The notes beneath the pieces are model-generated. The model made no database searches, was not told the DNA's origin, and was given only the letters and a program-made list of their open reading frames with translations. From IMG/VR virus record IMGVR_UViG_3300031555_003626, positions 32,001 to 96,000 of that record: 64,000 bases of DNA. One strand, given 5' to 3'. Origin of the DNA: a virus. Lineage: Duplodnaviria > Caudoviricetes. Positions within the stretch are counted from its first letter, which is position 1, and each line of letters opens with the position of its first letter. Shown here one piece after another: positions 6,191-57,164 of the stretch. A program made the position numbers and the translations under genes.

Positions 6191-7222
6191 ATGCCTAAGA
6201 TTTTTACAACGCCAGAAGCCGAAGCAAAAGCTAGAAGGCAAATGCGTTATATATTAATAGCGGGTGGCTTAAGAAGTAAGGACCCTAATGAAGACCTTCC
6301 TTATAACTTTCAGCGCAGCCAATATTTAGACAGTGCTAAAAAAGTTTGTGATGAGCTTGTAAACAGAGACTTTACAGATATTGATAGCGAGCTTAATACC
6401 TTGCACTATTATGCACCGGTCAGTCGAGGTGAAGCACGTTTTAAAGCTGAGGGCTTCGCTAAAGCTATTGTTTATATGGCAGAGTTACTTGGACTATACT
6501 GGGATGATACTCTTAAAACACCTTATGAAATTGAAGAATTTAAAAAGACTAAACTAGGAGAGGCCGTATATAAGTATGGTAGATATATTTCGGCTGTTCA
6601 GGATAAGCCTGCAAGAGCTTCAAGAAGCGCTTCAAGTGCTTCAGCTGGAGGCAGCAATACAACAACAGCCCAAGCGCCACAAAACGGTTATAAGTCTTCT
6701 GGCGCACAGTCAGGTAATGTAAGAGACTTGCGCGCTCTTGATGGTGTGAGCGCTGGAGTTCCTGGTCAGAAAGTTACTGCGGGTGGAACGTTTATTTTTA
6801 GAATTGTCGGAGATAACCCACAGTCTAAGAACACTCCAAATGTATTTATTAAGCCCCTAAGCGCTTCTGGTGCTACCGGAAATACTAATAAGGTTTTCTT
6901 CAGCAGCGGCAATGGTTATACAGACTGCACTTGTTATTTTGATGATCAAAACGATGCTCAAGATTTCTTAGATAAGATGATTGCAGCAAATAGAATTCCT
7001 GCGAATGTCAGTAATCCGAGAGTAGTTAAGCGTAATGCGGATCCTAATGGATACTTCTTGGCTGGAACAGAATTCGGTGTTTGTGCAATAAGTGCTAAGA
7101 CTTTAAATGAAGCTTTAAATGAGACTTTAACAGAAGACACTACAGGCAGCTGGGAAAAAGCTACTGAAAGCTACACCAAAGAAGAACTTGAAGAACTTCA
7201 CACTTGGATGAGAAGAGATTAA
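6191..7222 (+). CDS. hypothetical protein, possible internal head protein
   Basis: AAGGAG RBS; Ser/Ala linker; C-terminal LNEALNETLTED cluster. Confidence 0.7.
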   Translation: MPKIFTTPEAEAKARRQMRYILIAGGLRSKDPNEDLPYNFQRSQYLDSAKKVCDELVNRDFTDIDSELNTLHYYAPVSRGEARFKAEGFAKAIVYMAELLGLYWDDTLKTPYEIEEFKKTKLGEAVYKYGRYISAVQDKPARASRSASSASAGGSNTTTAQAPQNGYKSSGAQSGNVRDLRALDGVSAGVPGQKVTAGGTFIFRIVGDNPQSKNTPNVFIKPLSASGATGNTNKVFFSSGNGYTDCTCYFDDQNDAQDFLDKMIAANRIPANVSNPRVVKRNADPNGYFLAGTEFGVCAISAKTLNEALNETLTEDTTGSWEKATESYTKEELEELHTWMRRD

Positions 7223-7238
7223 TTAGGAGGAAATACCC

Positions 7239-8879
7239 GTGAAAATAAATAAAATTATTACAGAGTCGGTAAAAAAAGCTTATATCGATCAATCTGGCAG
7301 TTTAGCATCAGTCAAAGATAAGCTTACTGCAAAAGCTAATGCAGACGGCTGCACAGACATTTATTATTTTGATGATCTTAAATTTGCTGAGCCGCTAAAA
7401 GCTGCTAAAGCCGGAGAAGATATTGTTGTGTATACAGATGAAGATTGCCAAGCCAACTGTCCAGAGCTTGCAACATTTAAAAATGTTACCATTCATGATA
7501 TAACTAGTGAATTTAAAAATGAGTCTCTTACTGAAGCGGAAGATACTGCAGATGAAGATATTGCAATTGATGACATTTTAGATGCGTCTGTTAGTGAGAT
7601 TGCTGATGCAGTTCAAGACGCTGCAGAGGAAGCTTCTGATGGTAAAGAGACTTACTCAGATGCGAAAGCACAAAAAATTGCTACCGAGCTAAAGACTGCT
7701 GCAAAAGGCTTTGATGCTGCTGCTTGGGCTCCTCTTGATGTACAAAGTGAACTTACTGATAAACTTGATGATTGTCTATCCAATGCCATGGTTGGTCATC
7801 ATATGGGCACACATGATGGTGTAGACCTTCTTGTTTGTGGATTACCTGGCTCAGGTAAGACAGGTATTACTAAACAGTGGGCAAAAGATAGAGGAGTAAA
7901 TCTTTTCTACCTTAATGCTAAGAATGATGACCTTGGCGCAATTCTTAACGGCTTCCCTGTAAATGTCGAAGAAGAAGATGAAGAACTTGGTAAAGTACAA
8001 CGAGTAGTTCGTTCGTATTCTAAGTCTTTGGATGCGCTCGATAGAAAAAATTCAGTATTATTCTTAGATGAGTTTAATAGAGCACCGTCTAAACTTCGTG
8101 CAGTTCTTCTTTCGCTTATTAATGAGCACGTAGTAGACGGTCCAGGTGAAGACGGTTTTAGACATTTCGATGAGCTTCTCTTCACAGTAGCCTGCATTAA
8201 CCCATCTGTTCCGACTGACCCCGGTGCTATGGACCTAAACGATGCAGAAATGTCTCGTTTTGTAGATACTTTGGACTGGGATTCTAACGTACCAGACGCA
8301 ATTAAATATATTAGATTTCATCTTAAAAAGATAATTGAGACGCTTGACTCTAAAGATGAACATTATAATTTCTTGTATGTTCGTTATAATAAAATTTTAA
8401 ATCTGGCTGAAGCACTCCTCACCTCCACCAACCCATTGTTTGAGTTTGACGACAGAGATGACCTTCTTGACTTGTTTAATGACCATGCTAAGATGCTTAA
8501 CCAGCGTTCAATTACAGATGCTCTTATGTCTCATGGCTATAGTAAAGAGAAATTTCTAAATTGGGTTGATAACTACTCAAAGTTCCTTGATAAAAACAAG
8601 GAAATGATTCACAATATTCTTGATAGCTGGGTTGAGCCTGAAGTAGTAGTACCCGGAGCGAACGGTGCACCTGCAACGCAGGCTACTGAGGCTCCTGCAG
8701 AAGATGCTGATAATCAAACTCCAGCAGATTCCGATGATTTTGATAGCGTTTTTGGTACAGAAGGTGAAGAGATCGATAGTGATTTATTTGGCAGTACCGC
8801 TTCTAACGCAGGTAAGGCTGCAAGAGTTAGCGCAGCTGATGCACTTAATCGTATAAAGGCTTTTGATTTCTCGCTCTAA
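7239..8879 (+). CDS. MoxR-like AAA+ ATPase
   Basis: Walker A GLPGSGKT, Walker B LFLDEFNRA, ACINP, AEMSRF; acidic N- and C-terminal extensions. Confidence 0.85.
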   Translation: MKINKIITESVKKAYIDQSGSLASVKDKLTAKANADGCTDIYYFDDLKFAEPLKAAKAGEDIVVYTDEDCQANCPELATFKNVTIHDITSEFKNESLTEAEDTADEDIAIDDILDASVSEIADAVQDAAEEASDGKETYSDAKAQKIATELKTAAKGFDAAAWAPLDVQSELTDKLDDCLSNAMVGHHMGTHDGVDLLVCGLPGSGKTGITKQWAKDRGVNLFYLNAKNDDLGAILNGFPVNVEEEDEELGKVQRVVRSYSKSLDALDRKNSVLFLDEFNRAPSKLRAVLLSLINEHVVDGPGEDGFRHFDELLFTVACINPSVPTDPGAMDLNDAEMSRFVDTLDWDSNVPDAIKYIRFHLKKIIETLDSKDEHYNFLYVRYNKILNLAEALLTSTNPLFEFDDRDDLLDLFNDHAKMLNQRSITDALMSHGYSKEKFLNWVDNYSKFLDKNKEMIHNILDSWVEPEVVVPGANGAPATQATEAPAEDADNQTPADSDDFDSVFGTEGEEIDSDLFGSTASNAGKAARVSAADALNRIKAFDFSL

Positions 8880-8903
8880 TCATGAGCTAAAGGAGATTTG
8901 ACT

Positions 8904-10085
8904 ATGCAAATAAATAGAGCATTACTAGAATCTTCTGATATAACTAGACACTTTATGACTGACGGAGAGCGAAAAGTTAAAAAAGCTCTCTGTCAGCTTT
9001 TAATAAATAAAGGTCATAGAAAATATGCAGAACGTTTCTGGAAATTTGATTTTAATATTATAGACTCTAAAAAACATCCCGATTTTACTGCAGCTATTTC
9101 TTTTGATGAAGCAACTGTATTTATTAGTGATGGCTTTTTAGGTACAAGCGAAGCTATTTTTAATCAGCTTGATGTTTTACTTCGTCATGAGCTCGCACAC
9201 AATCTTATGATGCATCAAATTCGTCTTATGCACATTTTTAAAAGATTACACAAAAACGACCCAGACGAAGCTTATGAGCATATTAGATACAGTGCCAGCT
9301 TACATCATATTTTAAATATTATAGAAGACTTCGAAATTTCTAATAAACGATATACTGATGCAGACAAAAAGATAGTCAAAGCAATGACACTTAACGGTAG
9401 ACAGATTGGTGGACTTATTACAGAAGAAGATAGAGCCCATTGGGCAAAAATGCCACTTGAAGCTATGTATGAGGAACTTTCTAACGAGCTTATTCAGATT
9501 AATCGTGATATTAGAAGTGATCCTTACTGGCAGCCGAGATCACGAGTAAAAAATAATACGCGTATCTATGACCCTATTGATATCACTGGTAGTGGCTTAG
9601 ATGCTGATACTAGAGCTATCGCAGTATATAGAGACATAATGAAGCCTTCTGGTATTCGTGCTCCTATAGATATATTTATAAAGTCTAAGATTTTTAATAG
9701 ATATGCAGATATTTATAAAAAATTAATAACAGTAGTCTATGAAGCTTTTAAAGATTTTGAAACTGATACAGAAAAACAAAAGCTTTTAGACATTGTAAAA
9801 GACATCGCTGGCACGAGCCCGCAGGAAAAGTTTGATATTATAAACCCAAGAACTGGCGAAATAGTGACAACTTTGTATACTCCTGAAGATAAGGTGTTAG
9901 CTAACGAAGTTTTAAAAAATCTTGGTGGCAATATTAATTACGACCCACTTAAATTTAATATAAAAAGAAAAACTAATTCTCAAGATTATAAAGATGCTTG
10001 GAATAAAGTTGTAGCAGCATTAGATAAAAAGCAGTATGATGATGAAACACTGAACCAAGTTTTAGCTGCAATAAATAATGCATAA
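8904..10085 (+). CDS. putative metallopeptidase (DUF2201 N-terminal-like) MoxR partner
   Basis: LLRHELAH (HExxH) followed by NIIEDFEI; lies between MoxR and vWA genes. Confidence 0.7.
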   Translation: MQINRALLESSDITRHFMTDGERKVKKALCQLLINKGHRKYAERFWKFDFNIIDSKKHPDFTAAISFDEATVFISDGFLGTSEAIFNQLDVLLRHELAHNLMMHQIRLMHIFKRLHKNDPDEAYEHIRYSASLHHILNIIEDFEISNKRYTDADKKIVKAMTLNGRQIGGLITEEDRAHWAKMPLEAMYEELSNELIQINRDIRSDPYWQPRSRVKNNTRIYDPIDITGSGLDADTRAIAVYRDIMKPSGIRAPIDIFIKSKIFNRYADIYKKLITVVYEAFKDFETDTEKQKLLDIVKDIAGTSPQEKFDIINPRTGEIVTTLYTPEDKVLANEVLKNLGGNINYDPLKFNIKRKTNSQDYKDAWNKVVAALDKKQYDDETLNQVLAAINNA

Positions 10086-10111
10086 TAGCAAAATTGAAAG
10101 GTAAAGACTAG

Positions 10112-11917
10112 ATGGATATTAAAGATATTTTAGATTCACTTGGAATAGACTTGACAAACCCAGATGCTAAGCGTGGTGCTGCTGAAGCTATTCAAGCGAT
10201 TCTCGGCTCTCGTACGCCCCCGCCACCCAATATGAGTGGAGCTGGACTTCCCGGTGAAAAAGAGATAGATGTTGAAATCGACCCGGACCTACTTCAGCCT
10301 TCGCAAAAGTTTAATCAACCAGAAAGTGATGAAGATATAGAAATTGAAGATGAAGAAGACATCTTAAGTCAAATTAAACATAACGAGTCAGAAGACGACC
10401 TAGAGGATGATGGAAATAGCTCTGGCGATGATTCGTTAGACAGCGACTCCAATGGTGATAAGACCGATTCTAAGGAAGACTCCGGTGAGGCAGGTGACGC
10501 TGAAGGTCAGGATAAGGGCGAAGAAGCTGATAAAAAGACTCCAGGCTCATCTGAAGAACCTAGCGACGAGGAGGAAGGCTCTGATGATAACGAGCAGAGC
10601 GGCAATGAGTCTGGCGAGGACGGAGAAGACATTGAAGGCGACGAGCTTGACGATAATGTAGACTCAGATGAAGTTAACGACGATGAATTAAAGAATTCTT
10701 ATGATGACGATGAAGATTCTGACGAGGACGAAGAAGAAACCGAAGATGAAGCTTCTGATGAAGATTCTGATGAAGACGAGTTTGATGAAGATGACGCTGA
10801 CGAAGTTGACTTCGATGATGAGTCTGAAGAAGATGAATTTGAATTTGATGAAGATGAGTTTTTAGACGATGAATTAAAGAATTCTTATGATGATCAAGAA
10901 ATAAAATCTAAGCATGAAGCACGTGTGAGAAAAAGAGAGCGCACTTTAACAGCGGCTAAAGCTGCACTGGAAAAAGCTAAAACTAGAAATGTCGCTCCTG
11001 CCCTAATTAGAGAGTTGGAAAAATCTATTGAAGCTCTTGAAAGCTTAGTAGAGGCTGCTCAGAAAAACTTAAAAGATATCTCAGACGATGAATTTAACTT
11101 AATGATAAATCGCGTATTTGATGCAATAAGCGCAGTTGGAGATACTGACCTTACCTTTACTACGGATGAAGAACGTGAGCTTAGAGCCCAAGAGATTAAG
11201 GCTGACCTTGGAAGTAGAGAAACCCAACAAGCACTTTCTGATGAAGATATTGCGGCAATCAGAGCGGAAACTCAGGCTGTCAAGGCTAGAGAAAAAGAAA
11301 CAGCTATCTATAAAAAGCCTGCGGCGAGCTCATTTAAAGGTTTCCGAGAATTTTTAAATAGCTTATATCGTGCTATTGCTTTACAGGTTCAAACTAATGA
11401 AGTACAAGATGATACCTGGTCTGCTATTAATAGACGTTATAGTGGTACAGGCGTACTAAAGCAGGGACAGCGTAAGAATGACCTTCCAGATAGAAAAATT
11501 CCAATAATTGATTTCTATTTTGACTGTTCAGGCTCTTGGGGACCTAAAGATATAGAAGTTGGCAAGAGAGCTGTTAGTACTTTAGTAGATATGGAAGAAA
11601 AAGGTCAGATTAAAATTAATATATACTACTTCTCAAACCATGTATTTAACGATATGCAGTCTGCTCTTGATGAAGGTGGTACAAGAGCTTGGAATGATAT
11701 TGTAAAAAATATCATTAGTACGCAAGCTACTAATGTTGTCATTATGACAGACGCCGATATGGAAGACTGGTGGGAAGGCCCAGAAGCCTTAAAATATACC
11801 GTTCCAGGCTATGTCTGGTATCTCTGGAGAGATGGACAAAACGCGCCAAGACTCCCGAGAGACCTCAAAGGGCGTGGCGGTGTGCAGCAGTTCTCATTTA
11901 GTCAGGGAGATGTTTAA
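10112..11917 (+). CDS. vWA-domain protein with long acidic linker
   Basis: MIDAS FDCSGSW, GGT and MTDAD; about 200-aa D/E-rich tract. Confidence 0.8.
   Translation: MDIKDILDSLGIDLTNPDAKRGAAEAIQAILGSRTPPPPNMSGAGLPGEKEIDVEIDPDLLQPSQKFNQPESDEDIEIEDEEDILSQIKHNESEDDLEDDGNSSGDDSLDSDSNGDKTDSKEDSGEAGDAEGQDKGEEADKKTPGSSEEPSDEEEGSDDNEQSGNESGEDGEDIEGDELDDNVDSDEVNDDELKNSYDDDEDSDEDEEETEDEASDEDSDEDEFDEDDADEVDFDDESEEDEFEFDEDEFLDDELKNSYDDQEIKSKHEARVRKRERTLTAAKAALEKAKTRNVAPALIRELEKSIEALESLVEAAQKNLKDISDDEFNLMINRVFDAISAVGDTDLTFTTDEERELRAQEIKADLGSRETQQALSDEDIAAIRAETQAVKAREKETAIYKKPAASSFKGFREFLNSLYRAIALQVQTNEVQDDTWSAINRRYSGTGVLKQGQRKNDLPDRKIPIIDFYFDCSGSWGPKDIEVGKRAVSTLVDMEEKGQIKINIYYFSNHVFNDMQSALDEGGTRAWNDIVKNIISTQATNVVIMTDADMEDWWEGPEALKYTVPGYVWYLWRDGQNAPRLPRDLKGRGGVQQFSFSQGDV
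10679..10893 (+). repeat. 29-bp exact direct repeat within the vWA gene
   Basis: GACGATGAATTAAAGAATTCTTATGATGA at 10679 and 10865 (DDELKNSYDD). Confidence 0.85.
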
Positions 11918-11919
11918 TA

Positions 11920-12513: not shown

Positions 12514-13815
12514 ATGATAAATGATAAACTTTTTTTAGAAGAATTTGATGAAGAGCCCATTGAAGAAGCTAAAAAAGCTAAGCGTAGACGTAAGAAACCC
12601 TGTAGCTCTATTACTTACACCACAGGTGATATTGGCTTAAATATAGATAGATTTAATACTGCTATGGGAACGGCTGACCTTGGCGATTCTGGTGCTGATA
12701 CTGGAGCTTCAGAAGGTGGAGCTATAGGAGAAAGTCTCAAACTAAAAGAAAGCTGGGAAGAATTTGATTTTGAAGATTATAATAGCGATGATGTAGTTAC
12801 AGTTGTAATCGTTGACAAAAGATTTGATCCTCTATTTAAAAAGGACCACAAAGAGTCTTTAAGTAGGAATAATGTAAAAGTAGAGGGACACTATTTTAAC
12901 GGAATCGTTGTAACTGGCAAAGTTGGTGACATTATCCAAGTCTGTGATGACTGTCATGTAATGAATCCAAATAAAATTTTTATGGAAGCTTTATCGCTTA
13001 CTGAAGCTAAACGCTATGTACGCAGATATTATATCCGTCCACAAAATATATTCTGTTCCAACAAGGCTGAAATACTCAAGGCGCTTATCGAACTTGATGA
13101 TGCTAACTGTAGCGTCTACACTCTTAACAATCTCGGCGACGATAAAGATGTAAGTAAACTTATGAATAGTGATATTATTTATTACTATGATGATGGAATC
13201 CTTTATGATAAGAATCACGTAAAGGTTATGGATTACGACCTTTCTATTAAAAAAGAAGAAGAACGTAAAAAACTCGCTAAAGTTAACGATGACTCTAAAG
13301 AGTTTAAGTCAGAGTACGAAGACCGTATGACAGCAGCTACCGAGTTAGAAGAAAGCCAGGAGGCACTAGACGGTGCTTTTAATACAGTATTAGATGGTAT
13401 TTTTGATAACTGTGATTATGATGTTATTAGCGCTGATTTTACGCCAATGGGTGATAAAGTTATTATTACTTTAAATCATAATGCTTATGACATCGAGGCT
13501 GCTGCTGAGGAGCTTATGACCTGTCTAGATAATGCTGGTATCCCTGCAATTGATTGGAATACTAATGGCTCAAACGTGTTTATTTTTACACTAAACCCTG
13601 ATAATGCCTTTGATCTTGACTTTGACGATGTCAATGTTTATGGTGAAAATTTAACAGAAGCTATGCACGAGGCTTGCTGCATTTGTGGCGAATCTATTGA
13701 TGGCTATGGAAATAACCCTGAACCATATATGAGCGCCGACAAAGGTCGATGCTGTGACTCGTGTAATCTTCATTTCGTAATTCCACTGAGAATTGAACAA
13801 TCAGAGGAGGCTTAA
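12514..13815 (+). CDS. multi-module acidic protein with C-terminal zinc finger, possible processed internal head protein
   Basis: CCICG...GNNPEP...CCDSCN; IEEA, LKES, LTEA, LEES and LTEA sites separate the modules. Confidence 0.7.
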   Translation: MINDKLFLEEFDEEPIEEAKKAKRRRKKPCSSITYTTGDIGLNIDRFNTAMGTADLGDSGADTGASEGGAIGESLKLKESWEEFDFEDYNSDDVVTVVIVDKRFDPLFKKDHKESLSRNNVKVEGHYFNGIVVTGKVGDIIQVCDDCHVMNPNKIFMEALSLTEAKRYVRRYYIRPQNIFCSNKAEILKALIELDDANCSVYTLNNLGDDKDVSKLMNSDIIYYYDDGILYDKNHVKVMDYDLSIKKEEERKKLAKVNDDSKEFKSEYEDRMTAATELEESQEALDGAFNTVLDGIFDNCDYDVISADFTPMGDKVIITLNHNAYDIEAAAEELMTCLDNAGIPAIDWNTNGSNVFIFTLNPDNAFDLDFDDVNVYGENLTEAMHEACCICGESIDGYGNNPEPYMSADKGRCCDSCNLHFVIPLRIEQSEEA

Positions 13816-13816
13816 T

Positions 13817-15244
13817 ATGGCAACAGTATATGATCCGGCGATTCTTATGCCTACAAAGCCCGAAATAGAGAAAATCTTATCGGCAAAAGTGAGCTATGAA
13901 GCAGCACAAAGTAAGCCTGACAGAGATATCTGGAATAAAAAGAACTTTAATCTAACCCCATGGGGTATTGCTTATAATTGTAGTAAAGCCAAACACGATA
14001 AGTCTGTGGCTTCGGCGAAGAGCAAAGGCAAAAAAGTACCAAATGCAAGAGCCGATGATGCACTAAGATACTTTATTATTGCAGTGGCAATCGGCTGGCA
14101 GGAACTTATTGACCAGTTAAAGCGCACCATAAAAAACTGGGGGTATACCACAGGTGAGCTTCAAGAAATGGCTAAGCAAGTTTGGCAACAACCAGCTAAT
14201 GCTCAACTAATTTCAACTACAGTAGAGTTAGTACAAGCTGAAGGTAAAATTAAGCTGACGGAAGCAATCGAAAAGCACGATTCCCTAAACAGCAAACTGT
14301 TTACAAAAGAAGAAATGCTAAAAGATAAAGTACGCGATAAAATGCTAGAAATCGTTGATACTTTCTTAGATGACCTAAAAGAGCAAGATATTAAAATAAA
14401 AGTTGACGACATTTTATTTATTGGGTCTAATGCTAGTTACAACTATACAAAAGATAGTGATATAGACCTTCACATACTTGCAAATACTAAAGCTGTTGAT
14501 TACCCGGCAGACCTTGGAGCAGCAATATACAGTGCATATAGAAGTATCTTTAATAAAAATTTAGATATAACTCTTTATGATATTCCACTTGAGATTTTTG
14601 TAGAAACTGAAGATAGTGCAAGGGTGAGCAATGGAGTTTATTCCGTAAAGAAAAATAAATGGATCAAAAAGCCAATACAAGAAGAGATTCCAGAATACGA
14701 TAAAGAGGCACTTAATAAGCTTGTCGATGAGTGGGAAGAAAAGTGTAAGAAGCTTATTGATGATATAAAAGCAGACAAGCTTGATGATGAGAAAAAAGTT
14801 GTTAAGATGCTCGAAGATATTTACGAGAAACTTCGTAAGAAGGGCGTTGCTAAAGGCGAATATGCTATCGAAAACCTTGCGTTTAAGGAGCTTAGAAACA
14901 AAGGCTATCTTGATCAACTAAAAGACTATAGAAATGAGCTTACTTCTAAAAGACTTTCTCTTGAAGAGCAATTAAGTGCTAAGGCTAGACGAAATATTGA
15001 AATTCAAATTGCTCGAGCTGCAGGCACTCAGCCAATTATTCAAGATAATGGAATGTTCTTCATCTATAATCTAAAAGCTTCCGAGATAGACAGAGCTGTA
15101 AGAGCTCTTAAAGCACTCGATTTCGTCGAAGAGGTATATAGCTCTGAAAGCGGCAAACTTGATTTCAGTAAAATGATAATGGCTCCAGGGCAAATGCCTG
15201 CTAAGTATTATAATATTAGAGGCAAAATAAACTGGCCTGATTAA
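13817..15244 (+). CDS. Pol-beta-superfamily nucleotidyltransferase with extra N- and C-terminal modules
   Basis: IGSNASYNYTKDSDIDLH (GS...DxD) and a downstream acidic strand LEIFVE; GGAGG RBS. Confidence 0.8.
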   Translation: MATVYDPAILMPTKPEIEKILSAKVSYEAAQSKPDRDIWNKKNFNLTPWGIAYNCSKAKHDKSVASAKSKGKKVPNARADDALRYFIIAVAIGWQELIDQLKRTIKNWGYTTGELQEMAKQVWQQPANAQLISTTVELVQAEGKIKLTEAIEKHDSLNSKLFTKEEMLKDKVRDKMLEIVDTFLDDLKEQDIKIKVDDILFIGSNASYNYTKDSDIDLHILANTKAVDYPADLGAAIYSAYRSIFNKNLDITLYDIPLEIFVETEDSARVSNGVYSVKKNKWIKKPIQEEIPEYDKEALNKLVDEWEEKCKKLIDDIKADKLDDEKKVVKMLEDIYEKLRKKGVAKGEYAIENLAFKELRNKGYLDQLKDYRNELTSKRLSLEEQLSAKARRNIEIQIARAAGTQPIIQDNGMFFIYNLKASEIDRAVRALKALDFVEEVYSSESGKLDFSKMIMAPGQMPAKYYNIRGKINWPD

Positions 15245-16176: not shown

Positions 16177-17073
16177 ATGAAAAGGCAAACTCTACAGGAG
16201 CAATGCTTAATAGAATTATATAAGCTGGATGAAGCTACAAGAAATCAACTTATAGCTCAGTCTAGAAATGTTGGACGATATAAGGATATCTCTCGTGGCA
16301 AAACACGCATGGAGCGCAAGAAGTATTCTAAAGTAGCTAACGCCGTAAAATCTTATAACGAAATTAACATGAATGATTTCTGGAAAAGTGATATACTTAA
16401 GGTAAACATTCCAGTAGTCGGCGAAACTGATGAGTATACTGTTACAATAAAGCTTGAGGGCGTTGTAGCTGAACTTCAGAAAAATATTAAAAATAATCAA
16501 AATAAATTTGAGTTTAAAGCAATTATTCAAGCATTGACTAAAGTTTTTAACACTTCTGACGTCTACGTAAAATGCACTTGCCCTGATTTTAAGTATAGAT
16601 TCGCCCACCACTTAATAGTTGCTAATGTATCCGTAGATGACTCTTCAAAGGATCCTGGACCTGGAAAAGGAATAGTCAACCCAAATGATGATAAGGGCAG
16701 AGGCTGTAAGCATGTTTTATGTGTATTGTCAAATGGAAGCTGGATGATGAAAGTAGCATCAGTAATAAATAACTACTGTCATTATCTGTCTGAGAAAAAA
16801 CCTGATGCTTTTCTAAAACTCGTTTTTCCTAAGCTTTATGGTGTTCCTGCAGACGAAGCCGATCAAAATGGTATTGTAGAAGATAATGAAGATCTTGAGT
16901 CTGGTAAAGACCTTATCGACGTTGTTAATGACTGGGCCCGTAATAGAGGTAAGTTTAAAAAAGGCTCCAATAAAAATCCTGTCACTAGTACAGGCCCCGG
17001 TGATAAGAAAAACAAGGAAGAGCCTGATGAAGCTTCTGAAGAGCCTGTTGAGGAAATAGAAGATAAAAAATAA
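16177..17073 (+). CDS. SWIM zinc-finger protein
   Basis: VKCTCPDF...GCKH; GAAAGGA RBS before ATG 16177. Confidence 0.7.
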   Translation: MKRQTLQEQCLIELYKLDEATRNQLIAQSRNVGRYKDISRGKTRMERKKYSKVANAVKSYNEINMNDFWKSDILKVNIPVVGETDEYTVTIKLEGVVAELQKNIKNNQNKFEFKAIIQALTKVFNTSDVYVKCTCPDFKYRFAHHLIVANVSVDDSSKDPGPGKGIVNPNDDKGRGCKHVLCVLSNGSWMMKVASVINNYCHYLSEKKPDAFLKLVFPKLYGVPADEADQNGIVEDNEDLESGKDLIDVVNDWARNRGKFKKGSNKNPVTSTGPGDKKNKEEPDEASEEPVEEIEDKK

Positions 17074-19214: not shown

Positions 19215-21173
19215 ATGGCAGAAGAAAATAAGTACGTTAAACCCAAGCAGGCCCCTAGTACCTTAATAGGAAGTCAAACACAGCCAATAACGCTTGATAA
19301 TACTACTACTCTTGATATAGATACTAAAAAAATATTAATTGATAATATCATAGAGGCTGGGCTAAGCAGCCAGCTAGATATTGCCAAATTAGAAAATTTT
19401 ACAAGTATATCTAACTCTCGCGACCAAATATATCAACTTATCGACACTATGGCGCAAGATTCAGCCGTTTCAGCAATACTTAAAACCTATGCAGAGAATG
19501 CCTGTGAGCCTGCAGATAATGGCCACGTTATCTGGTGCGAGTCTACTGACCCAAATACAAGTAAATTTATCAATTACATACTTAATGTTATGAATGCCGA
19601 TAAAAATATGTATGGCTGGGCGTACAGTATCTGCAAATATGGTGATATATATTTAAGGCTATTCAGAGAATCAGACTACGCCGATGATTTATTTAAAGCT
19701 GATAATGTAGATATGGTTAATTCTACACGAGGTCGGCTAAACGAAGACTACGCAAGTGAAGAAAAGCTAGATGAGGCGGTTAAACTACGCCTACATGCTA
19801 ATCATGACCCATACAGCTTCTATGTGGAGCAGGTAGATGACCCAGGCACAATGTTCGAACTAGGTAAATTCGGTAAAACTTATGGTTATGTAGAAACACC
19901 TAATGAAGACATAGGCCTTGATGCAACTTCTACTTTATTTGGCGGGCAGTCTATGACTGGCACATATAACTTTAAAATGAAGTCTGCTGACGTTATTGTT
20001 TGGCAAGCAGACGATTTTGTACACGGCTGTCTCGAAGATAACTTCACAAGATATCCCGAAACTGTTGAGTTATTTATAGACCCTGAGGGCACCAAGAGTC
20101 AGATTTATAAAGTTAGAAGAGGTAAATCTCTTTTATACGACAACTATAAAGTTTGGCGAGAAAGGTCACTACTCGAACAGGCAGCGCTTCTAAACAGAAT
20201 TACTCGCTCAAGTATTGTTCGTAAGGTAGGTGTCGAAGTTGGTGACATGCCAAAAGAGCAAGTAAAGCAGACTTTACACAGAGTAAAAGAGATGATGGAG
20301 CAAAAAAGTGCGCTCAATACCGGAACTTCCATGAACGAGTACAATAACCCCGGACCTATTGAAAATAATATCTACTTTGCTACTCATGAAGGTAAAGGCA
20401 ATATTACTGTAGAGGCTGTAGGCGGTGATGTTGATGTAAAAAATCTTGCTGACCTTGACTATTGGAATAATAAGTTTTATTCCGCATATGGTGTGCCCAA
20501 ACAGTATTATGGATGGACAGACGATGCAGCAGGATTTAATGGAGGCTCGTCTCTAGCAATTATATCAAGTGAGTTTGCTAAAGGCGTCAAAAGAGTTCAA
20601 AACGCGCTTATTCAAATGGTTACCGATGCAATTAATCTATTTCTATTAAATAGAGGTCTTAAAAGCTATCTAAATAACTTCACGCTTAAAATGAAGGCGC
20701 CGCTGACACAAGAAGAGATTGACTATAGGTCTGACCTATCTAATAAAATTAACGCTATAAGTAGCATTCAAGGTTTGTTTACTGATATTGAAGATAAGGC
20801 TCGTCGCCTAAGGATTCTTAAGACATTGCTCGGTGGACTCAATTATGGTGATAGCATCTTTACCGAGATTGACGCAGAAATAAAAGCGATAGAAGAAGCT
20901 GAAGCAAAGGCTGCAGAAGAAGCAGCACTCGAAGGAACTGACGTCACCGCTACAGAAACCCCAAGTGAGCCTGCAGATGAAACCAATGATACTGAAGACC
21001 TAGACCTTGGTACACTCGCAGACCTTGAGTCATTTAACACAAACGGTGGCAGTGAGTTCTTAACAGAAGATCAAGAAGTTTTAAACACTGAAGTATCAAC
21101 AATCTTGACAGAAGACGACCTTCCTTCTCCTGTTGAATTAGATGCAGAAAAAGATTTTTCAGAAAATAATTGA
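19215..21173 (+). CDS. portal protein (T4 gp20-like)
   Basis: LEQAALLNRITRS...VEVGDMP and DLDYWNNKFYSAYGVPK motifs; synteny. Confidence 0.88.
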   Translation: MAEENKYVKPKQAPSTLIGSQTQPITLDNTTTLDIDTKKILIDNIIEAGLSSQLDIAKLENFTSISNSRDQIYQLIDTMAQDSAVSAILKTYAENACEPADNGHVIWCESTDPNTSKFINYILNVMNADKNMYGWAYSICKYGDIYLRLFRESDYADDLFKADNVDMVNSTRGRLNEDYASEEKLDEAVKLRLHANHDPYSFYVEQVDDPGTMFELGKFGKTYGYVETPNEDIGLDATSTLFGGQSMTGTYNFKMKSADVIVWQADDFVHGCLEDNFTRYPETVELFIDPEGTKSQIYKVRRGKSLLYDNYKVWRERSLLEQAALLNRITRSSIVRKVGVEVGDMPKEQVKQTLHRVKEMMEQKSALNTGTSMNEYNNPGPIENNIYFATHEGKGNITVEAVGGDVDVKNLADLDYWNNKFYSAYGVPKQYYGWTDDAAGFNGGSSLAIISSEFAKGVKRVQNALIQMVTDAINLFLLNRGLKSYLNNFTLKMKAPLTQEEIDYRSDLSNKINAISSIQGLFTDIEDKARRLRILKTLLGGLNYGDSIFTEIDAEIKAIEEAEAKAAEEAALEGTDVTATETPSEPADETNDTEDLDLGTLADLESFNTNGGSEFLTEDQEVLNTEVSTILTEDDLPSPVELDAEKDFSENN

Positions 21174-22261: not shown

Positions 22262-24160
22262 ATGACTAAAAGTAATGAAATACTAGAGGCATTAAAAATG
22301 CAGCCTCTTACAGAAGAAGAAAAGGCTAGTCGTCATATTTTAGGTAGATGGTACGGTCCTATTGCAACCTGTAACGAGAGTACTCGTAACGGTAGACGTT
22401 ATAATAGAGAGCTTTGGGAAAAAGCATTAAATGATGAGCTCTTCCACGAGAAAATTGCTAATAAATGCTTGTTCCTTGAACTTGGCCACCCACAGGATAG
22501 AGAAGAGACGGATATGTCTAAGGTATGTGCCTGTATTCCTGAAATGCCTAAGATTATTGATGGCGACCTTTGTGCTTGCGTTGATATTCTAGATACACCA
22601 AATGGTAGAATTCTGAAAACACTTTGTGATTATGGATTTGTTCCCGGTGTTTCTTCCAGAGGTTCTGGTGATGTAATGCCAAATAACGACGTTGATCCTG
22701 ATACCTTCTATCTAGAGACCTTCGATTGCGTTGCAATTCCAGCAGTAAAAAGAGCTAGAGGCGTAATGTGTGAATCTTTAGATAAAAACGCAGTTAATCT
22801 TAAAAAGGCTCTTACTGAGTCTATAAATAAGGCCAGTGAAGAGGATAAAGCAATTATGAAAGAAACTCTTGAAAACTTAGCTATCGATATTGAAACTTCT
22901 GAGGAAGCTAAGGAAGAACTTGTTGAAAAGAGACTATCTGTGGACGAGATTCCCTGGGACCCTGAAGAAGACCCTAATCTTTTAACTGAAGACGCTGAGG
23001 CCGAGGATGAGGAAGAAACCTCTGATGAGATAGAAGCCGAGTCCGAAGACACCACAGAATCAGAAGTTATCGAAGAGGTTCCTGAAGAAGCTACTGAAGA
23101 ACCAGAAGAGGTTATTGTAGATGTTGATAGTGCTGAAGAAGTTACAGTAAATACTGTTGCTGACGCTATCGAGCAGCTACAAGAGTACGATGATAATACA
23201 GAAGTGCAGTTTGAACCCATTGAAATAGATGGTAAGGAATATAATATCGACAAACTTGAAACTTTTGTAGACGAAGACGCTAATATCTTAGTAGTAGGTG
23301 TTAACTGTGAAGAAGCTGAAATAAGTTCAGATGACACAGATTCAAATATAGAAGCTCAATCTGAAGACGAAGAAATTTCTGTTGAAAATTCTGATGAGCC
23401 CGAAGATACTGATCAGTCAGCCGAAGATGCCGGAGATGAAGAAGTAATCGAAAGCTTAAAAGAAATGATTAGACAGAAAGAAGCTTTGGAAACCGAAATT
23501 AGTGATTTGCGTAAAGCTAAATCAGTTGGCGATGCCAAAGAAAAGGAATTACAAGAAAAACTAAATAGGTACAGAACTGCATTTAGAACAACTAGTGCGG
23601 AAGCCGCGAAAGTTCCTGAGCTGCAATCTAAAGTAAAAGAGCTAACCGAGCAATTAACACAAGCTCAAAACAATGTAAAAGCATTAAATGAAAAAGTTAA
23701 CAAGGCACAACAGCTAAAAGAGAGCATTGAAGGTAATAAGGCTAACGAAAGACGCTTGAATGAAGAAGTGTCTAGACTTACCAAGAGATCTGAAGCTCTT
23801 GAAGCTAAACTTGAAGGTCAAACAAAGCAGTATACTGAAAAGCTTGAAGAAAGAACAAATTTAGCTAAGAAGTATAAAGCTCGCTTTATTGAAACTCTTA
23901 CTAAATACATTGAGTCTAAAGCAAGTATGCTTGGTGTTAAACCTTCTGAAATCACAAGCCGCCTCAATGAAAGCTATACTCTTGCAGATGTTGATGCTGT
24001 TTGTAACAAAATTCTTGATTCTACTAATACGTTTAGTAGACTTCCATTCAGCGGAAGGACTAAGGTCTCTGCTCGTATAACAGAGTCTGTTTCAAATAAG
24101 ACTTCTGAATACGAAGATGACGACCTTTCCAGCCTTTATGAGCTCGCTGGATTGAAGTAA
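22262..24160 (+). CDS. prohead protease (T4 gp21-like) fused to acidic linker and coiled-coil scaffold
   Basis: NGRRY, ELGHP, TPNGRIL, GVSSRGSG and FDCVAIPA, followed by a long coiled coil. Confidence 0.88.
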   Translation: MTKSNEILEALKMQPLTEEEKASRHILGRWYGPIATCNESTRNGRRYNRELWEKALNDELFHEKIANKCLFLELGHPQDREETDMSKVCACIPEMPKIIDGDLCACVDILDTPNGRILKTLCDYGFVPGVSSRGSGDVMPNNDVDPDTFYLETFDCVAIPAVKRARGVMCESLDKNAVNLKKALTESINKASEEDKAIMKETLENLAIDIETSEEAKEELVEKRLSVDEIPWDPEEDPNLLTEDAEAEDEEETSDEIEAESEDTTESEVIEEVPEEATEEPEEVIVDVDSAEEVTVNTVADAIEQLQEYDDNTEVQFEPIEIDGKEYNIDKLETFVDEDANILVVGVNCEEAEISSDDTDSNIEAQSEDEEISVENSDEPEDTDQSAEDAGDEEVIESLKEMIRQKEALETEISDLRKAKSVGDAKEKELQEKLNRYRTAFRTTSAEAAKVPELQSKVKELTEQLTQAQNNVKALNEKVNKAQQLKESIEGNKANERRLNEEVSRLTKRSEALEAKLEGQTKQYTEKLEERTNLAKKYKARFIETLTKYIESKASMLGVKPSEITSRLNESYTLADVDAVCNKILDSTNTFSRLPFSGRTKVSARITESVSNKTSEYEDDDLSSLYELAGLK

Positions 24161-24221
24161 TAAACTATAAGCTCAAAAAAACAAAATTTTAAATAAAAAT
24201 TAAATTAAAAGAGGTAAAATT

Positions 24222-25547
24222 ATGAGACAAAATCTTCTTGAAACATATAGCCGTCAGCTTAAGGTTGCTGAGGCTTATGTAGCTAAAAACTTTGAAGGTA
24301 AGACCATGTCTAGCAACACCGCTCTTACTACTGCTGTTCTTCTTGACAACACTAACCGTTGGCTCACCGAGTCTATGGACATCGGCGCTCTTGGCAACGC
24401 TACTGATCGTTCCAGCCTTGGCGCTTGGAAGAAGTTCTGCCTTAACCTTACTAACATTGCAGTTCCTTCCCTTATTGCTAACGATCTTGTAATCGTTCAT
24501 CCTATGACTTCTTACTCTGGTTCCGTTGCATACCTTAAGTATGTAGCTCTTGATGAGAAGAAGATCGGTGGTAACACTGAACTCAACAGCGTGTTCGGCC
24601 TTGGTCAGATGGACGACATGCGTATGAGCTACACCTCTCAAGTTGTTGTTGAGACTCTTGATGAGACTGCTGCTCTTTCCTTCACAGCTGACGAAATTGT
24701 TACTGATGGCTTCAAGTACTTTGACAAGGCTACTAATACCGCTAAGACTGCTACCTACAAGGTAAACGGTGAGTACGTTGAGGGCGCTTACACTCCTAAG
24801 GCTGGTGACAGAGTTGCTTACAAGGTAGCTGACTACCAGATGGAGAAAGTTCCTGCAACTAAGATTCCTACTATCGGTCCTAAGATGGAGCACATTCCTC
24901 TTGTAGCTGAGCCTCGTAGAATCGCTGTTCGTTATGACCAGATCACTGCTTTCCAGGCTAAGACTGACTACGGCTTCTCTCTTGACAAGCAGATCGCTGA
25001 GCAGGCTTGCGGCGAGCTTGCATACGAAATCGACACCGAGATCGTAGACATGCTTTACACTGCTGCTTTTGCACAGAAAGAAAAGCTTGCTGACTGGTCT
25101 AAGACTCTTCCTGCAGGCGTTTCTAAGTTCGAGCACTACAATGGCTTCCTTGAGGTTGTTGAAATGGCTAAGGCTATCATCTACAATAGAACTAAGAAGT
25201 TCCACCCCAACTACATGGTAATCGCTTCTGACGTTCTTCCTGTTCTTCGTTTCGTTAACGGCTTCACTGCAGTTAAGAACGCTAAGATGAATGGTCCTTA
25301 CAAGGTTGGTGAGCTTGACGGTCTTGCAGTTTATGTATCTCCTATGCTCAAGAGCGGTGAGTTCTTCCTTGGTCTCAACGGTAACGATATGATGTCTTCT
25401 GCTGGTGTTTACGCACCTTACATGGCAATCGTTCCTACTCAGCTTCTTGGTACTCCTGATGGTGGTCTTGCACAAGGCTTCAGCACCTGGTATGCTAAGG
25501 CACTCCTTAACGAGAACCTCCTTGTTGCTGGTCGCATCGTTGACTAA
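24222..25547 (+). CDS. major capsid protein (T4 gp23-like)
   Basis: LIANDLVIVHPMT..SG, LAYEIDTEI and GVYAPY; strong codon bias; position after the protease. Confidence 0.92.
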   Translation: MRQNLLETYSRQLKVAEAYVAKNFEGKTMSSNTALTTAVLLDNTNRWLTESMDIGALGNATDRSSLGAWKKFCLNLTNIAVPSLIANDLVIVHPMTSYSGSVAYLKYVALDEKKIGGNTELNSVFGLGQMDDMRMSYTSQVVVETLDETAALSFTADEIVTDGFKYFDKATNTAKTATYKVNGEYVEGAYTPKAGDRVAYKVADYQMEKVPATKIPTIGPKMEHIPLVAEPRRIAVRYDQITAFQAKTDYGFSLDKQIAEQACGELAYEIDTEIVDMLYTAAFAQKEKLADWSKTLPAGVSKFEHYNGFLEVVEMAKAIIYNRTKKFHPNYMVIASDVLPVLRFVNGFTAVKNAKMNGPYKVGELDGLAVYVSPMLKSGEFFLGLNGNDMMSSAGVYAPYMAIVPTQLLGTPDGGLAQGFSTWYAKALLNENLLVAGRIVD

Positions 25548-50413: not shown

Positions 50414-51229
50414 ATGGAATTAAGAGAATGGCAGTATATGAGTAAGCCTGCTAGTAATTCAGGAAGCTATAAGAAAAGATTTGAAAAACTTATTAAATAT
50501 CATATAGACCATGCTTCTTCTGAACTTGAGAGTATTACGAGAAAAGATATTTCTGATAGGTACTTCCGCCTTAGCGAGCATTATAACGATGGCTCTAAAG
50601 AATTTGATAGGAGCATTATAGTAGCGGTCGATACGAGTACCGAAGAATTCGAAATACATATTTTTATAGACCATGAGGAAGTAGAGAGTATTCAACGTAA
50701 GGGCTATGAAAATTTCGTAGCCGCTATTGAGCCTTATATGTTTCTTCCTGACTCTGGGACTCAGGAGTATGATGACTTACTAGTAGAATGGATTGTCATG
50801 AATAATTCTACAACAAGTAGTTCTCAGCCGGCTTCAGTAGTTTCTTCTAAAACTAATAAAGAAAAATTTATAGAGCTTATTGCTTATATGGTTAATCATA
50901 AAGCTTCAGATGTTATTGCAACTGAAGAGTCTAGACTAGATAATACAGGTTTTCATTATAAGGAACATCATAAGCCGGCTAATGAAAAAGATCATGAAAT
51001 CGAAGTTAAGGTAGGCTGCAGTAGATTTAAAGATTTATTTTCTATTTATATTTTTAAAGACGGTAAACAGATAATGACTTATATGGCTAGCGGGTGGGAA
51101 GAACTGCTAAAGTACCTTAAAGGTTATTTTAGTGTTCCTAGCTATGGAAGTCCGGAACATAAGAGTTTATGTGAATCCGCTTCTTCTATAGCAGAAGACT
51201 TTAAGACTTACGAAAATCTTTGGGATTAA
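50414..51229 (+). CDS. protein made of two tandem homologous domains
   Basis: KKRFEKLIKYHIDH...IHIFID...KGYENF...P..G.QEY versus KEKFIELIAYMVNH...IYIFKD...SGWEEL...P..G.PEH. Confidence 0.75.
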   Translation: MELREWQYMSKPASNSGSYKKRFEKLIKYHIDHASSELESITRKDISDRYFRLSEHYNDGSKEFDRSIIVAVDTSTEEFEIHIFIDHEEVESIQRKGYENFVAAIEPYMFLPDSGTQEYDDLLVEWIVMNNSTTSSSQPASVVSSKTNKEKFIELIAYMVNHKASDVIATEESRLDNTGFHYKEHHKPANEKDHEIEVKVGCSRFKDLFSIYIFKDGKQIMTYMASGWEELLKYLKGYFSVPSYGSPEHKSLCESASSIAEDFKTYENLWD

Positions 51230-51796: not shown

Positions 51797-51866
51797 TTTT
51801 TATTGACCTCTTATTTTATTATAAGGGGTCTAATTATTTTTATGAGCTCATATTTTTATTCAGGTC

Positions 51867-54797: not shown

Positions 54798-54821
54798 TAG
54801 AATTTCGCGAGTAAAAAATAA

Positions 54822-54830
54822 GCTAAATTA
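54822..54830 (+). promoter_or_regulatory. putative late promoter GCTAAATTA
   Basis: Upstream of the HNH gene. Confidence 0.55.
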
Positions 54831-54858
54831 AATGAAGTATTTTAAGGAGCTTATTTAA

Positions 54859-56206: not shown

Positions 56207-56219
56207 GTAATTTCAATTT

Positions 56220-56228
56220 GCTAAATTA
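56220..56228 (+). promoter_or_regulatory. putative late promoter GCTAAATTA
   Basis: Recurrent motif. Confidence 0.6.
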
Positions 56229-56255
56229 TGTGATTAATCTTTAAGGAGAATATAA

Positions 56256-57164
56256 ATGGTAACATATATTTATTTTGTAAAGTGCCCTAACTGTGAGGAT
56301 GAGCCCTTCGACTTCTTTGACGAAGCTAAGGCATTTGCTATGGGCTGCATGAACCAGAAGCCTGTTATTAATCAAATTGAGGTTAATAGAAATGATTTTG
56401 GCGAGTGTACTGACTCTTGTGATCTTGGAACAGTTTGGTCTTGGGAAGATGCTGTAGGTAAGGAAACTGAAGCAGAACCCGCAGTATCTGTTTTTAATAA
56501 AGGTGACTTTGGGAAGTATACAGATGATTCTGAGTTCGATGATGATGAATTCTACTTTAGTAACGGACTTGTAGAAGAAGTTGCACCTACGAGATTTTCA
56601 TTTAAGAATAAAGCAGATCAAGAAGAGTTCTTTAAGCTCTGCCGCGAAATTGGTATAATTACAGGTGCAGACCTTCGTAAGTTTATAGACGAGAACGATG
56701 CTGACGACTCTAACCTTCTTGATAAGCTCAGAGAATATAGAGCTGAACTTGGTGATGACTTTAAGATTGCTGAGTGCGCTAAAAAGCCGATTCCAGAAGG
56801 AATGACTATCGAGCAGCTAGTAGAAGAGATGGAAGAGAATGAGGATACAGTTGAGTGTACCTGGTGTAATGACCTTTTTGATAAGAGTGAGTGTCGTAAG
56901 GAAGTAGATCTCGGTTGGCTTTGTAGTAGATGTGAGATGGCTATAAAGTCTAGAGGTGAGACTCTTACTTTCAGAGAAGGAAATTATTGGGATTTCCTTG
57001 ATGAAGAAGTAGAAGAGGTTCATGATCTCGGTAATGAGTATGATGGTGGTTATCCTGCCGAAACTCCAGAAGTTTCAGATTCTCACCTAAAGTTCTGTCC
57101 CGAGTGTGGAAAAGAAACCTTTGATATTGAAACCGGAATTTGCATAGAATGCGGATTTAATTAA
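56256..57164 (+). CDS. acidic multi-zinc-ribbon protein
   Basis: CPNC, CTWC...CSRC and CPEC...CIEC; LVEE, IAEC and LDEE sites between modules. Confidence 0.7.
   Translation: MVTYIYFVKCPNCEDEPFDFFDEAKAFAMGCMNQKPVINQIEVNRNDFGECTDSCDLGTVWSWEDAVGKETEAEPAVSVFNKGDFGKYTDDSEFDDDEFYFSNGLVEEVAPTRFSFKNKADQEEFFKLCREIGIITGADLRKFIDENDADDSNLLDKLREYRAELGDDFKIAECAKKPIPEGMTIEQLVEEMEENEDTVECTWCNDLFDKSECRKEVDLGWLCSRCEMAIKSRGETLTFREGNYWDFLDEEVEEVHDLGNEYDGGYPAETPEVSDSHLKFCPECGKETFDIETGICIECGFN

Follow-up and report, generated by a model that had tools for sequence, protein, structure and literature searches.

The 64,000-nucleotide stretch of DNA analyzed here (hereafter, the window) corresponds to bases 32001-96000 of a 233,329-base IMG/VR virus record (IMGVR_UViG_3300031555_003626) that CheckV rates as complete. 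The record represents an uncultured 218-kb gut phage with a T4-type head, from a gut/rumen jumbo-phage lineage known from metagenomes alone. We consider it moderately likely that candidate proteins encoded in its head module, many of them with no evident structural role, are true substrates of the prohead protease. The probable substrates with the best support are a MoxR-like AAA+ ATPase, an HExxH zincin peptidase, a modular Cys-rich protein (12514), a Pol-beta-fold nucleotidyltransferase, a SWIM-like zinc-finger protein, and an acidic protein with two zinc ribbons (26487); proteins without a family name are referred to by the window coordinate of their gene. The first-pass annotation of the window had proposed such processing, and all of the peptide strings that it listed are present in the open reading frames (ORFs) to which it assigned them, based on translations and motif lists. 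However, the generic cleavage motif that it used does not carry the signal; a narrower, lineage-specific motif does.

A T4 gp21-type protease, which this proposal presupposed, is encoded in the window (Table 1). The protein matches Pfam Peptidase_S77 (PF03420; MEROPS S77) over residues 38-143 at 39.2 bits (curated cut-off, 27; E-value, 6.9e-10), and it matches the head maturation protease family phrog_207 (1e-25). In an alignment to the T4 gp21 structure 5JBL, the residues ELGHP and GVSSRGSG lie opposite ELNAP and GVASRGLG at the two active-site positions, which provides the motifs GHP and SSRG; the crystallised chain is presumably an inactive mutant with His and Ser changed to Ala. Candidate self-cleavage sites (the arrow marks the expected cut) lie at residues 7-10 (ILE↓A, ending a 9-residue leader), at residues 184-187 at the end of the protease domain (LTE↓S), at residue 241 (LTE↓D), at residue 485 (LKE↓S), and at residues 606-609 (ITE↓S), before a conserved C-terminal tail that ends in LLELAGLK.

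For conservation analysis, we used ~50 related contigs from IMG/VR and scored retention in homologues <80% identical around the site, as [LIVM]-x-E-[ASDEGQ]. The site at the end of the protease domain was retained as L-x-E↓S in 20/20 divergent homologues, the site before the C-terminal tail as [IVM]-x-E↓[SA] in 30/30, and the N-terminal ILE↓A after nine residues in 15/19; a further protease-site retention figure was 29/29. The major capsid protein begins with a near-invariant propeptide of 50 residues that ends W-L-T-E↓S (residues 48-51) and is followed by a linker of variable length, with the Gp23 profile beginning at residue 68; the site was found as [LMI]TE[SA] in all 32 divergent homologues. 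The portal protein has LTE↓D at residues 616 and 631 in its acidic C-terminal tail, and the first of these is kept as LxE[DEG] in 15/15 homologues. The expectation that canonical substrates bear protease sites was thus borne out at the end of the capsid propeptide, at the protease/scaffold junction and C-terminal tail, and in the C-terminal tail of the portal. Based on the conserved capsid-propeptide, N-terminal, and domain-end sites, we infer that the protease cuts after Glu in [L/I/M/V]-x-E↓[A/S/D].

The generic motif (L/I)-x-E-(A/S/D), which had been expected to exceed shuffled controls, is at or near expectation once Thr at P2 is removed. Across the whole proteome, [LI].E and [LI].E[ASD] occurred at 1.12x and 1.23x the level of within-protein shuffles. 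We defined the head module as window positions 6191-30127 (20 genes, 24 kb). In its proteins other than the portal, protease, and capsid, [LI]xE[ASD] occurred 25 times versus 18.8 expected (p 0.10), and with P2 = Thr excluded the count was 16 versus 17.9 expected; for the whole head module with the same exclusion, it was 23 versus 23.4. At protein N-termini genome-wide, [LI]xE[ASD] showed a weak excess (20 versus 13.2 +/- 3.7), and the head-module subset alone stood out. The phiKZ-type motif [SAG].E was not enriched in the whole proteome (1019 versus 1020 in shuffles). The generic L-x-E count is therefore uninformative, and the caveat raised in the first-pass annotation, that the motif is short and the proteins are Glu-rich, agrees with this null result.

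When P2 is Thr, the motif [LI]-T-E-[ASD] occurs 34 times genome-wide versus 9.8 expected (p 1e-9). A scan of all 20 residues at P2 identified Thr as the sole enriched residue, with every other residue at ~1x, including Ser (9 versus 9.8) and Asp (10 versus 11.3). With T-E-[ASD] fixed, Leu was enriched at P3 (24 versus 5.3) and Ile weakly so; with [LI]-T-x-[ASD] fixed, Glu alone was strongly enriched at P1 (the same 34 versus 9.8), and Gly and Pro were marginal (p 0.03-0.04). Ala, Ser, and Asp were favoured at P1', and Gln and Glu were likewise above expectation there. In an unbiased ranking of tetrapeptides, LTEA came third (11 versus 1.9). The head module holds 15 copies of [LI]TE[ASD] versus 1.3 expected (p 2e-11). 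Six of these belong to the portal, protease, and capsid, and the other nine to further proteins, for which 0.9 would be expected. For the tail module the count is three versus 0.7, and for the remaining 303 proteins it is 16 versus 7.8. Shuffling within local blocks of 20 or 40 residues, so that local acidity was kept, gave the same picture for the head module (15 versus 1.3-1.4, with a maximum of 6 in 300 shuffles). Based on a scan statistic, the best 24-kb window contains 15 hits, whereas the maximum was 14 in 2000 resamplings in which the 34 hits were placed in proportion to expectation. The codons for Leu, Thr, and Glu differ among sites, so the signal resides in the protein and not in the DNA, and a DNA-level motif underlying LTE[ASD] was ruled out. 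In a 220-kb relative (G001) whose capsid protein is 84% identical, Thr was again the clearest enriched residue at P2 (21 versus 9.9, p 0.0014), Ile was marginal (p 0.036), and 8 of the 21 LTE-type hits fell in homologues of the same head-module proteins.

The LTE-type sites also persist in homologues, as a check proposed with the original claim had called for. Their mean retention was 0.84 and the median 1.0; control motifs in the same proteins were retained at 0.28 (L-x-D-[ASD]), 0.27 (L-x-K-[ASD]), and 0.49 (L-x-E followed by other residues). Among relatives, P2 varies freely (T, A, V, Q, N, K, R, I) and P3 and P1 are held, as expected because the T4-type L/I-x-E rule predicts this pattern.

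The MoxR-like ATPase starts at a GTG codon, with an AGGAGGA ribosome-binding site 7 nt upstream, and has a 9-residue leader, MKINKIITE↓S. A leader of the form M[KR]I..[LI]xE↓[SD], 8-12 residues long, was present in all eight homologues examined; two homologues at only 36-37% identity keep it (MKIKKLNE↓S and MKIFKESKRLVE↓D), and it is kept despite a 75-residue indel just downstream of the leader. Two distant relatives with genomes of 223 and 237 kb (L065, G002:C1:201856-206175; L066, G003:C1:9296-13471) have two to four in-frame TGA codons in the MoxR gene, two of which align to Trp in other phages. This suggests recoding of TGA as Trp in that branch, so that some ORFs called under table 11 at several of the fetched loci may be incomplete.

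The zincin has a leader of nine residues as well, MQINRALLE↓SS, which was found at 6/6 loci and, as M.[IL]N[RK]ALLE, in 93 of 120 database homologues; in distant homologues the leader ends in AFLSE↓G or KLFE↓A. Neither the zincin nor the neighbouring acidic protein with a C-terminal vWA-like domain matched a family in Pfam or NCBIfam at E ≤ 0.01. HExxH and the MIDAS motif DCSGS are encoded by separate genes and not by one DUF2201-matching polypeptide. The vWA-like protein is a weak candidate: its LVE↓A at residue 312 is kept in 5/5 homologues and reads LTEA in G001. With a peptidase gene in the same operon as several candidate substrates, the sites could instead be cut by the zincin, aided by the MoxR and vWA-like proteins, and not by the prohead protease. 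We regard this as very improbable, as the best-conserved sites are of the classical gp21 type (capsid propeptide, protease N-terminus, and protease-scaffold junction), T4 gp21 is known to cut after Glu when P3 is Leu or Ile, and the zincin itself bears a leader.

Among the remaining probable substrates of the prohead protease, the 12514 protein has an N-terminal leader ending IEE↓A, given as M.INK.A[LFM]IE↓AKK in relatives of its family, and LTE↓A at residues 162 and 380, retained in 6/6 and 8/8 homologues. In alignments, each LTE↓A sits directly after an insert module that has no counterpart in relatives; the sites therefore mark module borders. Compared with five relatives, the 12514 protein has gained two extra modules of ~85 residues each (approximately residues 75-158 and 282-365).

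The nucleotidyltransferase consists, in order, of a helical N-terminal domain, LTE↓A (residues 155-158), the catalytic core, LEE↓Q (residues 390-393), and a C-terminal alpha/beta domain. Its AlphaFold model has a predicted local distance difference test (pLDDT) score of 74.9, and its only two internal segments with pLDDT <50, residues 154-156 and 388-392, are the positions of the two sites. LTE↓A is kept in 10/10 homologues, and L390 and E392 are invariant. Foldseek matches to the model were weak (all E > 0.03), and all were nucleotidyltransferases of the Pol-beta type. The proposed location of sites in linkers of predicted structures was therefore upheld for both sites of this protein; the model of the 12514 protein was too poor to use.

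The SWIM-like protein, encoded just 5' of the large terminase, has a 19-residue leader, MKRQTLQEQCLIELYKLDE↓AT, that ends in L-D-E↓A; LxE[AD]T occurs in all aligned homologues, and the length of the leader varies. The 26487 protein has a conserved N-terminus, MKESITKFDLESAFKALDE↓I (ending in FDLESAFKALDE↓I), and two further sites, LTE↓A at residue 337 (counted from 26457) and ITE↓S at residue 533, nine residues from the C-terminus. These were retained in 10/11 and 7/9 homologues, and site 337 abuts very large indels in relatives.

The claim that non-structural proteins carry sites at termini or domain borders thus holds for the six proteins above, where the sites are conserved, and is weak for the vWA-like protein and three others. 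The 343-aa protein encoded by the first gene of the operon (6191) has LNE↓A (305) and LTE↓D (313) before a conserved 27-residue C-terminal tail, with retention in 4/5 and 3/3 homologues; few homologues are available, and the protein matched no family in Pfam, PHROGs, or NCBIfam. The 484-aa protein 28673 begins MNIPITFLTE↓A, and a similar leader (YLIE↓K) was found in just one of three homologues. The 50414 protein is modular, with repeat units that begin L-x-E-[W/S], and it ends LCE↓SASSIAEDFKTYENLWD; as its L-x-E-W sites begin homologous repeats, they are not independent evidence. The claim is unsupported for three further proteins. For the 51260 protein (DUF5662), the only site is INE↓G, a single close homologue is available, and there is no LTE-type site; the 56256 protein has no [LI]xE[ASD] site. 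The 55748 protein was rejected as a leader-bearing protein, as its likely start is MLTEA and it therefore lacks a leader. An NCBIfam scan of ten candidates gave nothing useful.

Three unrelated proteins (the MoxR-like ATPase, the zincin, and the 12514 family) share one type of leader, M-x-I-N-K/R-..-L/I-x-E↓S/A; candidate leader sequences include MKINKIITES and MKLHEEFKLYENMW. A regular expression derived from these leaders identified no further match among the called proteins of the genome. Outside the window, a 103-residue ORF located behind GCTAAATTA (a promoter-like motif described below), with a good ribosome-binding site, starts MRINKLTE↓S and may possibly encode a small internal protein. 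A different shared targeting pattern, L..AF..L, had been suggested for two proteins and was not sustained: DLESAFKAL lies within the very conserved N-terminus of the 26487 protein, and NLLNAFGLL in the 51260 protein has no comparable support.

A six-frame search of the genome gave only four copies of a second terminal motif, [ED]FK[LTI]YE[NDT][LM]W: three at the very start of unrelated proteins (MKLHEEFKLYENLW; one of the proteins is GIY-YIG-like) and one at the very end of the 50414 protein. In G001, the motif occurs once at an N-terminus, in a different protein, and once at a C-terminus. At the DNA level the copies differ synonymously, their upstream regions are unrelated, and an L-x-E↓[AS] site lies between the motif and the protein body in three of the four cases in the record. 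The motif may be a docking tag usable at either end of a protein.

All candidates were said to sit behind the promoter-like motif GCTAAATTA. This is correct and does not discriminate among genes. The motif has 15 copies in the window, all on the plus strand, versus 2.2 expected, and 39 forward and three reverse copies genome-wide. It heads every head and tail operon, and it also precedes nrdD, a metabolic gene for an anaerobic ribonucleotide reductase (NRDD 5e-184, with an ATP-cone), and a NUMOD3 homing-endonuclease gene. Therefore, GCTAAATTA is not a marker of virion genes and indicates late or phage-specific transcription. The presence of nrdD in the window also suggests that the host is probably an anaerobe.

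It is quite unlikely, in our assessment, that the motif and leaders are conserved for non-proteolytic reasons (helix N-capping, folding, docking, or translation initiation) and that the enzymes are cytoplasmic late proteins; several observations nonetheless point that way or otherwise weigh against cleavage. L-T-E-A/D/S would fit the N-terminus of a helix, the conserved N-termini could have another purpose, GCTAAATTA heads metabolic genes too, MoxR/vWA pairs of other phages have been described as non-structural, and the sole MoxR pair discussed for a Bacillus jumbo phage, 0305phi8-36, lies in a non-structural arm among non-structural genes (PMC2147016). [LI]TE[ASD] is ~2x enriched outside the head module and has three copies in tail proteins; not all copies can be cleavage sites. 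The Thr-specific motif was defined post hoc, albeit with P-values that survive correction for 20 choices at P2. Portal site 631 is poorly conserved (7/16, in an indel-rich region), a second MoxR site (LTEA, residue 97) is not conserved (1/5), no [LI]xE leader was found at the N-terminus of the vWA-like protein, the AlphaFold model of the 12514 protein has a pLDDT of 41, and literature searches identified no virion proteomics for this uncultured lineage. Against a non-proteolytic explanation, Ser and Asp cap helices equally well and yet are not enriched at P2, for which reason helix capping was rejected as the cause; the excess in the head module is 11-fold; relatives vary P2 freely and hold P3 and P1; and the sites are found in linkers, next to indels, and where leaders common to unrelated proteins end.

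We therefore return to processing by the prohead protease. Because conserved sites lie at leader ends or in inter-domain linkers, the candidates are probably incorporated into the prohead core, where they would be trimmed or divided into modules; both the cutting of the sites and the presence of these proteins inside the head are inferred. A protease zymogen fused to scaffold would co-assemble with portal, capsid, and leader-bearing proteins. On activation, the protease would lose its own nine N-terminal residues at ILE↓A and split from the scaffold at LTE↓S 184; it would then take off the 50-residue capsid propeptide, next degrade the scaffold region, and next trim the acidic tail of the portal. 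It would also strip leaders and cut multi-module proteins at their linkers; in this genome, it presumably favours Thr strongly at P2.

The candidates differ in which T4 proteins they resemble. The MoxR-like ATPase and the zincin, in each of which one site terminates a short leader, resemble T4 proteins that are retained, and the 26487 and vWA-like proteins, with several internal sites and acidic tracts, resemble scaffold. It is possible, if unlikely, that the candidates are prohead-resident assembly factors. The MoxR-like, zincin, and vWA-like proteins and the acidic zinc-ribbon proteins would then help to build or clear the scaffold core and, like gp22, gp67, and gp68 of T4, be fragmented and expelled ahead of DNA packaging, so that nothing functional is injected. 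Their genes are within head-assembly operons, several of them have the long acidic tracts and several internal sites of a scaffold, MoxR ATPases are usually described as chaperones (PMC2147016, PMC10638138), and T4 degrades core proteins at the same motif (PMC9958956). This view is opposed by the pattern in the MoxR-like ATPase and the zincin, each with just one well-conserved site, which closes a short leader, as in the retained internal proteins (IPs), Alt, and gp24 of T4, and by the nucleotidyltransferase, which, based on its model, would be freed as an intact catalytic domain with no obvious use in assembly.

By analogy with T4 IPI-III and Alt and with the ejection proteins of phiKZ and SPN3US, some of the processed candidates may remain in the virion and pass into the next host. 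We regard the injection of active enzymes as a tentative and rather doubtful proposal. Equally tentative is a fuller scenario, in which a ready-made, ATP-driven machine of MoxR and zincin (perhaps with the vWA-like protein as adaptor) and the nucleotidyltransferase would be packed into the capsid by means of removable leaders, be injected, and act on the host before phage expression; together with the second terminal motif, this would amount to a modular loading code much broader than that of T4. To our knowledge, neither an AAA+/peptidase pair nor a nucleotidyltransferase has ever been shown to be capsid cargo.

The proposed scheme is a known T4/giant-phage scheme in altered form and not a new type of system. 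In T4, the prohead protease processes IPI-III, Alt, gp24, gp67, and gp68; it removes leaders of ~10 residues from the IPs, Alt, and gp24, nine residues from gp21, and 65 from gp23 (PMC9958956). The window shares with the T4 prohead core (Mullaney & Black 1996; PMC9958956) an S77 protease, a gp20-type portal, a gp23-type capsid protein with a long propeptide, a predicted cut after Glu where P3 is Leu or Ile, a 9-residue protease leader, and site-ended leaders of ~10 residues common to unrelated proteins. Unlike in T4, Thr is preferred at P2, the protease is fused to a scaffold-like region, sites occur in the portal tail, and a second terminal motif ([ED]FK.YE..W) is found at either protein end. 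The candidate cargo also differs, as it consists of large enzymes (AAA+ ATPase, zincin, nucleotidyltransferase) along with modular proteins that bear sites internally, and this phage is known from sequence alone. Scans of Pfam, PHROGs, and NCBIfam gave no internal-protein or Alt family, with no direct sequence comparison to IPI-III or Alt made; the claim is that the candidates work like T4 capsid-targeted internal proteins, and not that they belong to that family.

Similar processing is known from the jumbo phages phiKZ, 201phi2-1, and SPN3US, in which a gp21-related protease (gp175/gp245) cuts many head proteins after Glu, propeptides are mostly N-terminal, and enzymes are packaged and ejected (PMC10052503, PMC7411985, PMC5694885). 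In SPN3US, gp245 cuts at A-x-E in nine head proteins, mostly taking off N-terminal propeptides of 20-254 residues, and in phiKZ-like phages many head and ejection proteins are cut by an A/S/G-x-E rule (PMC10052503). Whereas P3 is small in those phages, Leu, Ile, Met, or Val is enriched or conserved at P3 here; the lineage also differs, and no virion RNA polymerase is among the candidates. The only experimental hint identified comes from the Staphylococcus jumbo phage DC4, in which the adjacent genes 00011 and 00012 encode an AAA ATPase and a fused zincin-acidic-vWA protein. Liquid chromatography-mass spectrometry of purified DC4 virions detected the ATPase, a result for which the authors ask confirmation (PMC10638138). 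The window likewise has an AAA+ ATPase gene adjoining sequence that encodes HExxH, an acidic linker, and a MIDAS vWA domain. Unlike in DC4, zincin and vWA are separate genes here, pairwise similarity is marginal (E 0.002 for a weak alignment of the MIDAS region with the fused DC4 protein), and the DC4 ATPase lacks the N-terminal leader of the MoxR-like ATPase. A literature search on DUF2201, MoxR, and phage identified no paper.

Table 1. Coordinates of the features discussed. Positions refer to the window unless prefixed with G000:C1, which denotes the full record.
Feature	Position	Strand	Annotation
Protein 6191 (343 aa, first gene of operon; weak to moderate candidate)	6191..7222	+	
MoxR-like AAA+ ATPase	7239..8879	+	AAA_3 28 bits (cut-off 27), AAA_5 28 bits (cut-off 22), residues 196-342
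HExxH zincin peptidase	8904..10085	+	HELAH in translation; true start is the second Met
Acidic protein, C-terminal vWA-like domain (MIDAS DCSGS)	10112..11917	+	No Pfam match
Modular Cys-rich protein	12514..13815	+	
Pol-beta-fold nucleotidyltransferase	13793..15244 (probable true start 13817)	+	Weak Pfam Polbeta/NTP_transf_2; phrog_36119 2e-32
SWIM-like zinc-finger protein	16177..17073	+	Start corrected by promoter and ribosome-binding-site context
Portal (gp20 type)	19215..21173	+	Pfam Portal_T4 1e-35
Prohead protease (T4 gp21 family) fused to acidic, coiled scaffold-like region	22262..24160	+	Pfam, PHROGs
Major capsid protein (gp23 type)	24222..25547	+	Pfam Gp23 7e-31
Acidic protein, two zinc ribbons	26487..28085	+	
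Protein 28673 (484 aa; weak candidate)	28673..30127	+	
Tail-region protein (994 residues)	42907-45891		YadA-head repeats, Pfam 7e-17
NadR-like and PnuC genes	47526-49299		Cytidylyltransferase + AAA_28; nicotinamide-mononucleotide transporter
Modular protein 50414 (weak candidate)	50414..51229	+	
[ED]FK[LTI]YE[NDT][LM]W, C-terminal copy	51197-51229		Last residues of 50414 protein
NUMOD3 homing-endonuclease gene	54859		
nrdD	58709 (58649-60913)		NRDD, ATP-cone
GCTAAATTA, one copy	6143..6151	+	Promoter-like
GCTAAATTA, starts of the other 14 copies	12413, 16135, 21774, 22207, 25697, 31127, 33529, 36437, 42856, 49346, 50307, 54822, 56220, 58649	+	Promoter-like
[ED]FK[LTI]YE[NDT][LM]W, N-terminal copies (outside window)	G000:C1:21524-22603, 23806-24291, 124438-124962		
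103-residue ORF (outside window)	G000:C1:196968-197279		Starts MRINKLTE↓S

Nearly all genes in the window are on the plus strand. Upstream of the portal gene, behind a motif of the GCTAAATTA type, the order is 6191, MoxR, HExxH, the MIDAS-like acidic protein, a small acidic protein, 12514, the nucleotidyltransferase, an Amidase_3/PG_binding_1 endolysin, the SWIM-like protein, and the large terminase; head-tail adaptor, sheath, tube, baseplate, and fibre genes lie 3' of the head genes. For five genes, the likely true start differs from that of the longest ORF: 8904 and not 8898 (zincin), 13817 and not 13793 (nucleotidyltransferase), 16177 and not 16102 (SWIM-like protein), 26487 and not 26457 (zinc-ribbon protein), and 55769 and not 55748.

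The nearest cultured capsid proteins, from Bacillus and Listeria phages, are only ~29% identical, and on this basis the lineage is known only from metagenomes. A megablast search of the head genes against cultured phages gave no matches, and MoxR homologues in cultured phages were found only in Vibrio phages, at 29% identity across the AAA core. The ends of the record (approximately G000:C1 1-15,000 and 215,000-233,329) repeat one another unevenly, with seven proteins identical and others 55-87% identical over their first 45 residues; this may represent a diverged long terminal repeat or an assembly that joined two strains. The tail-region protein with YadA-head repeats resembles an adhesin and is a candidate receptor-binding fibre. 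The adjoining NadR-like and PnuC genes, located between the genes for the tail and those for replication, together form a nicotinamide adenine dinucleotide (NAD) salvage unit.

If the proposed processing and delivery are correct, an abundant lineage of uncultured gut/rumen jumbo phages would deliver large enzymes, and not just small internal proteins, by T4-like capsid targeting with protease trimming. The concrete cleavage rule, [L/I]-T-E↓[A/S/D], together with the leaders, could guide the annotation of virion cargo in metagenomic phages, and it could aid the search for injected anti-defence effectors as well as the design of protein-loading tags for phage capsids.

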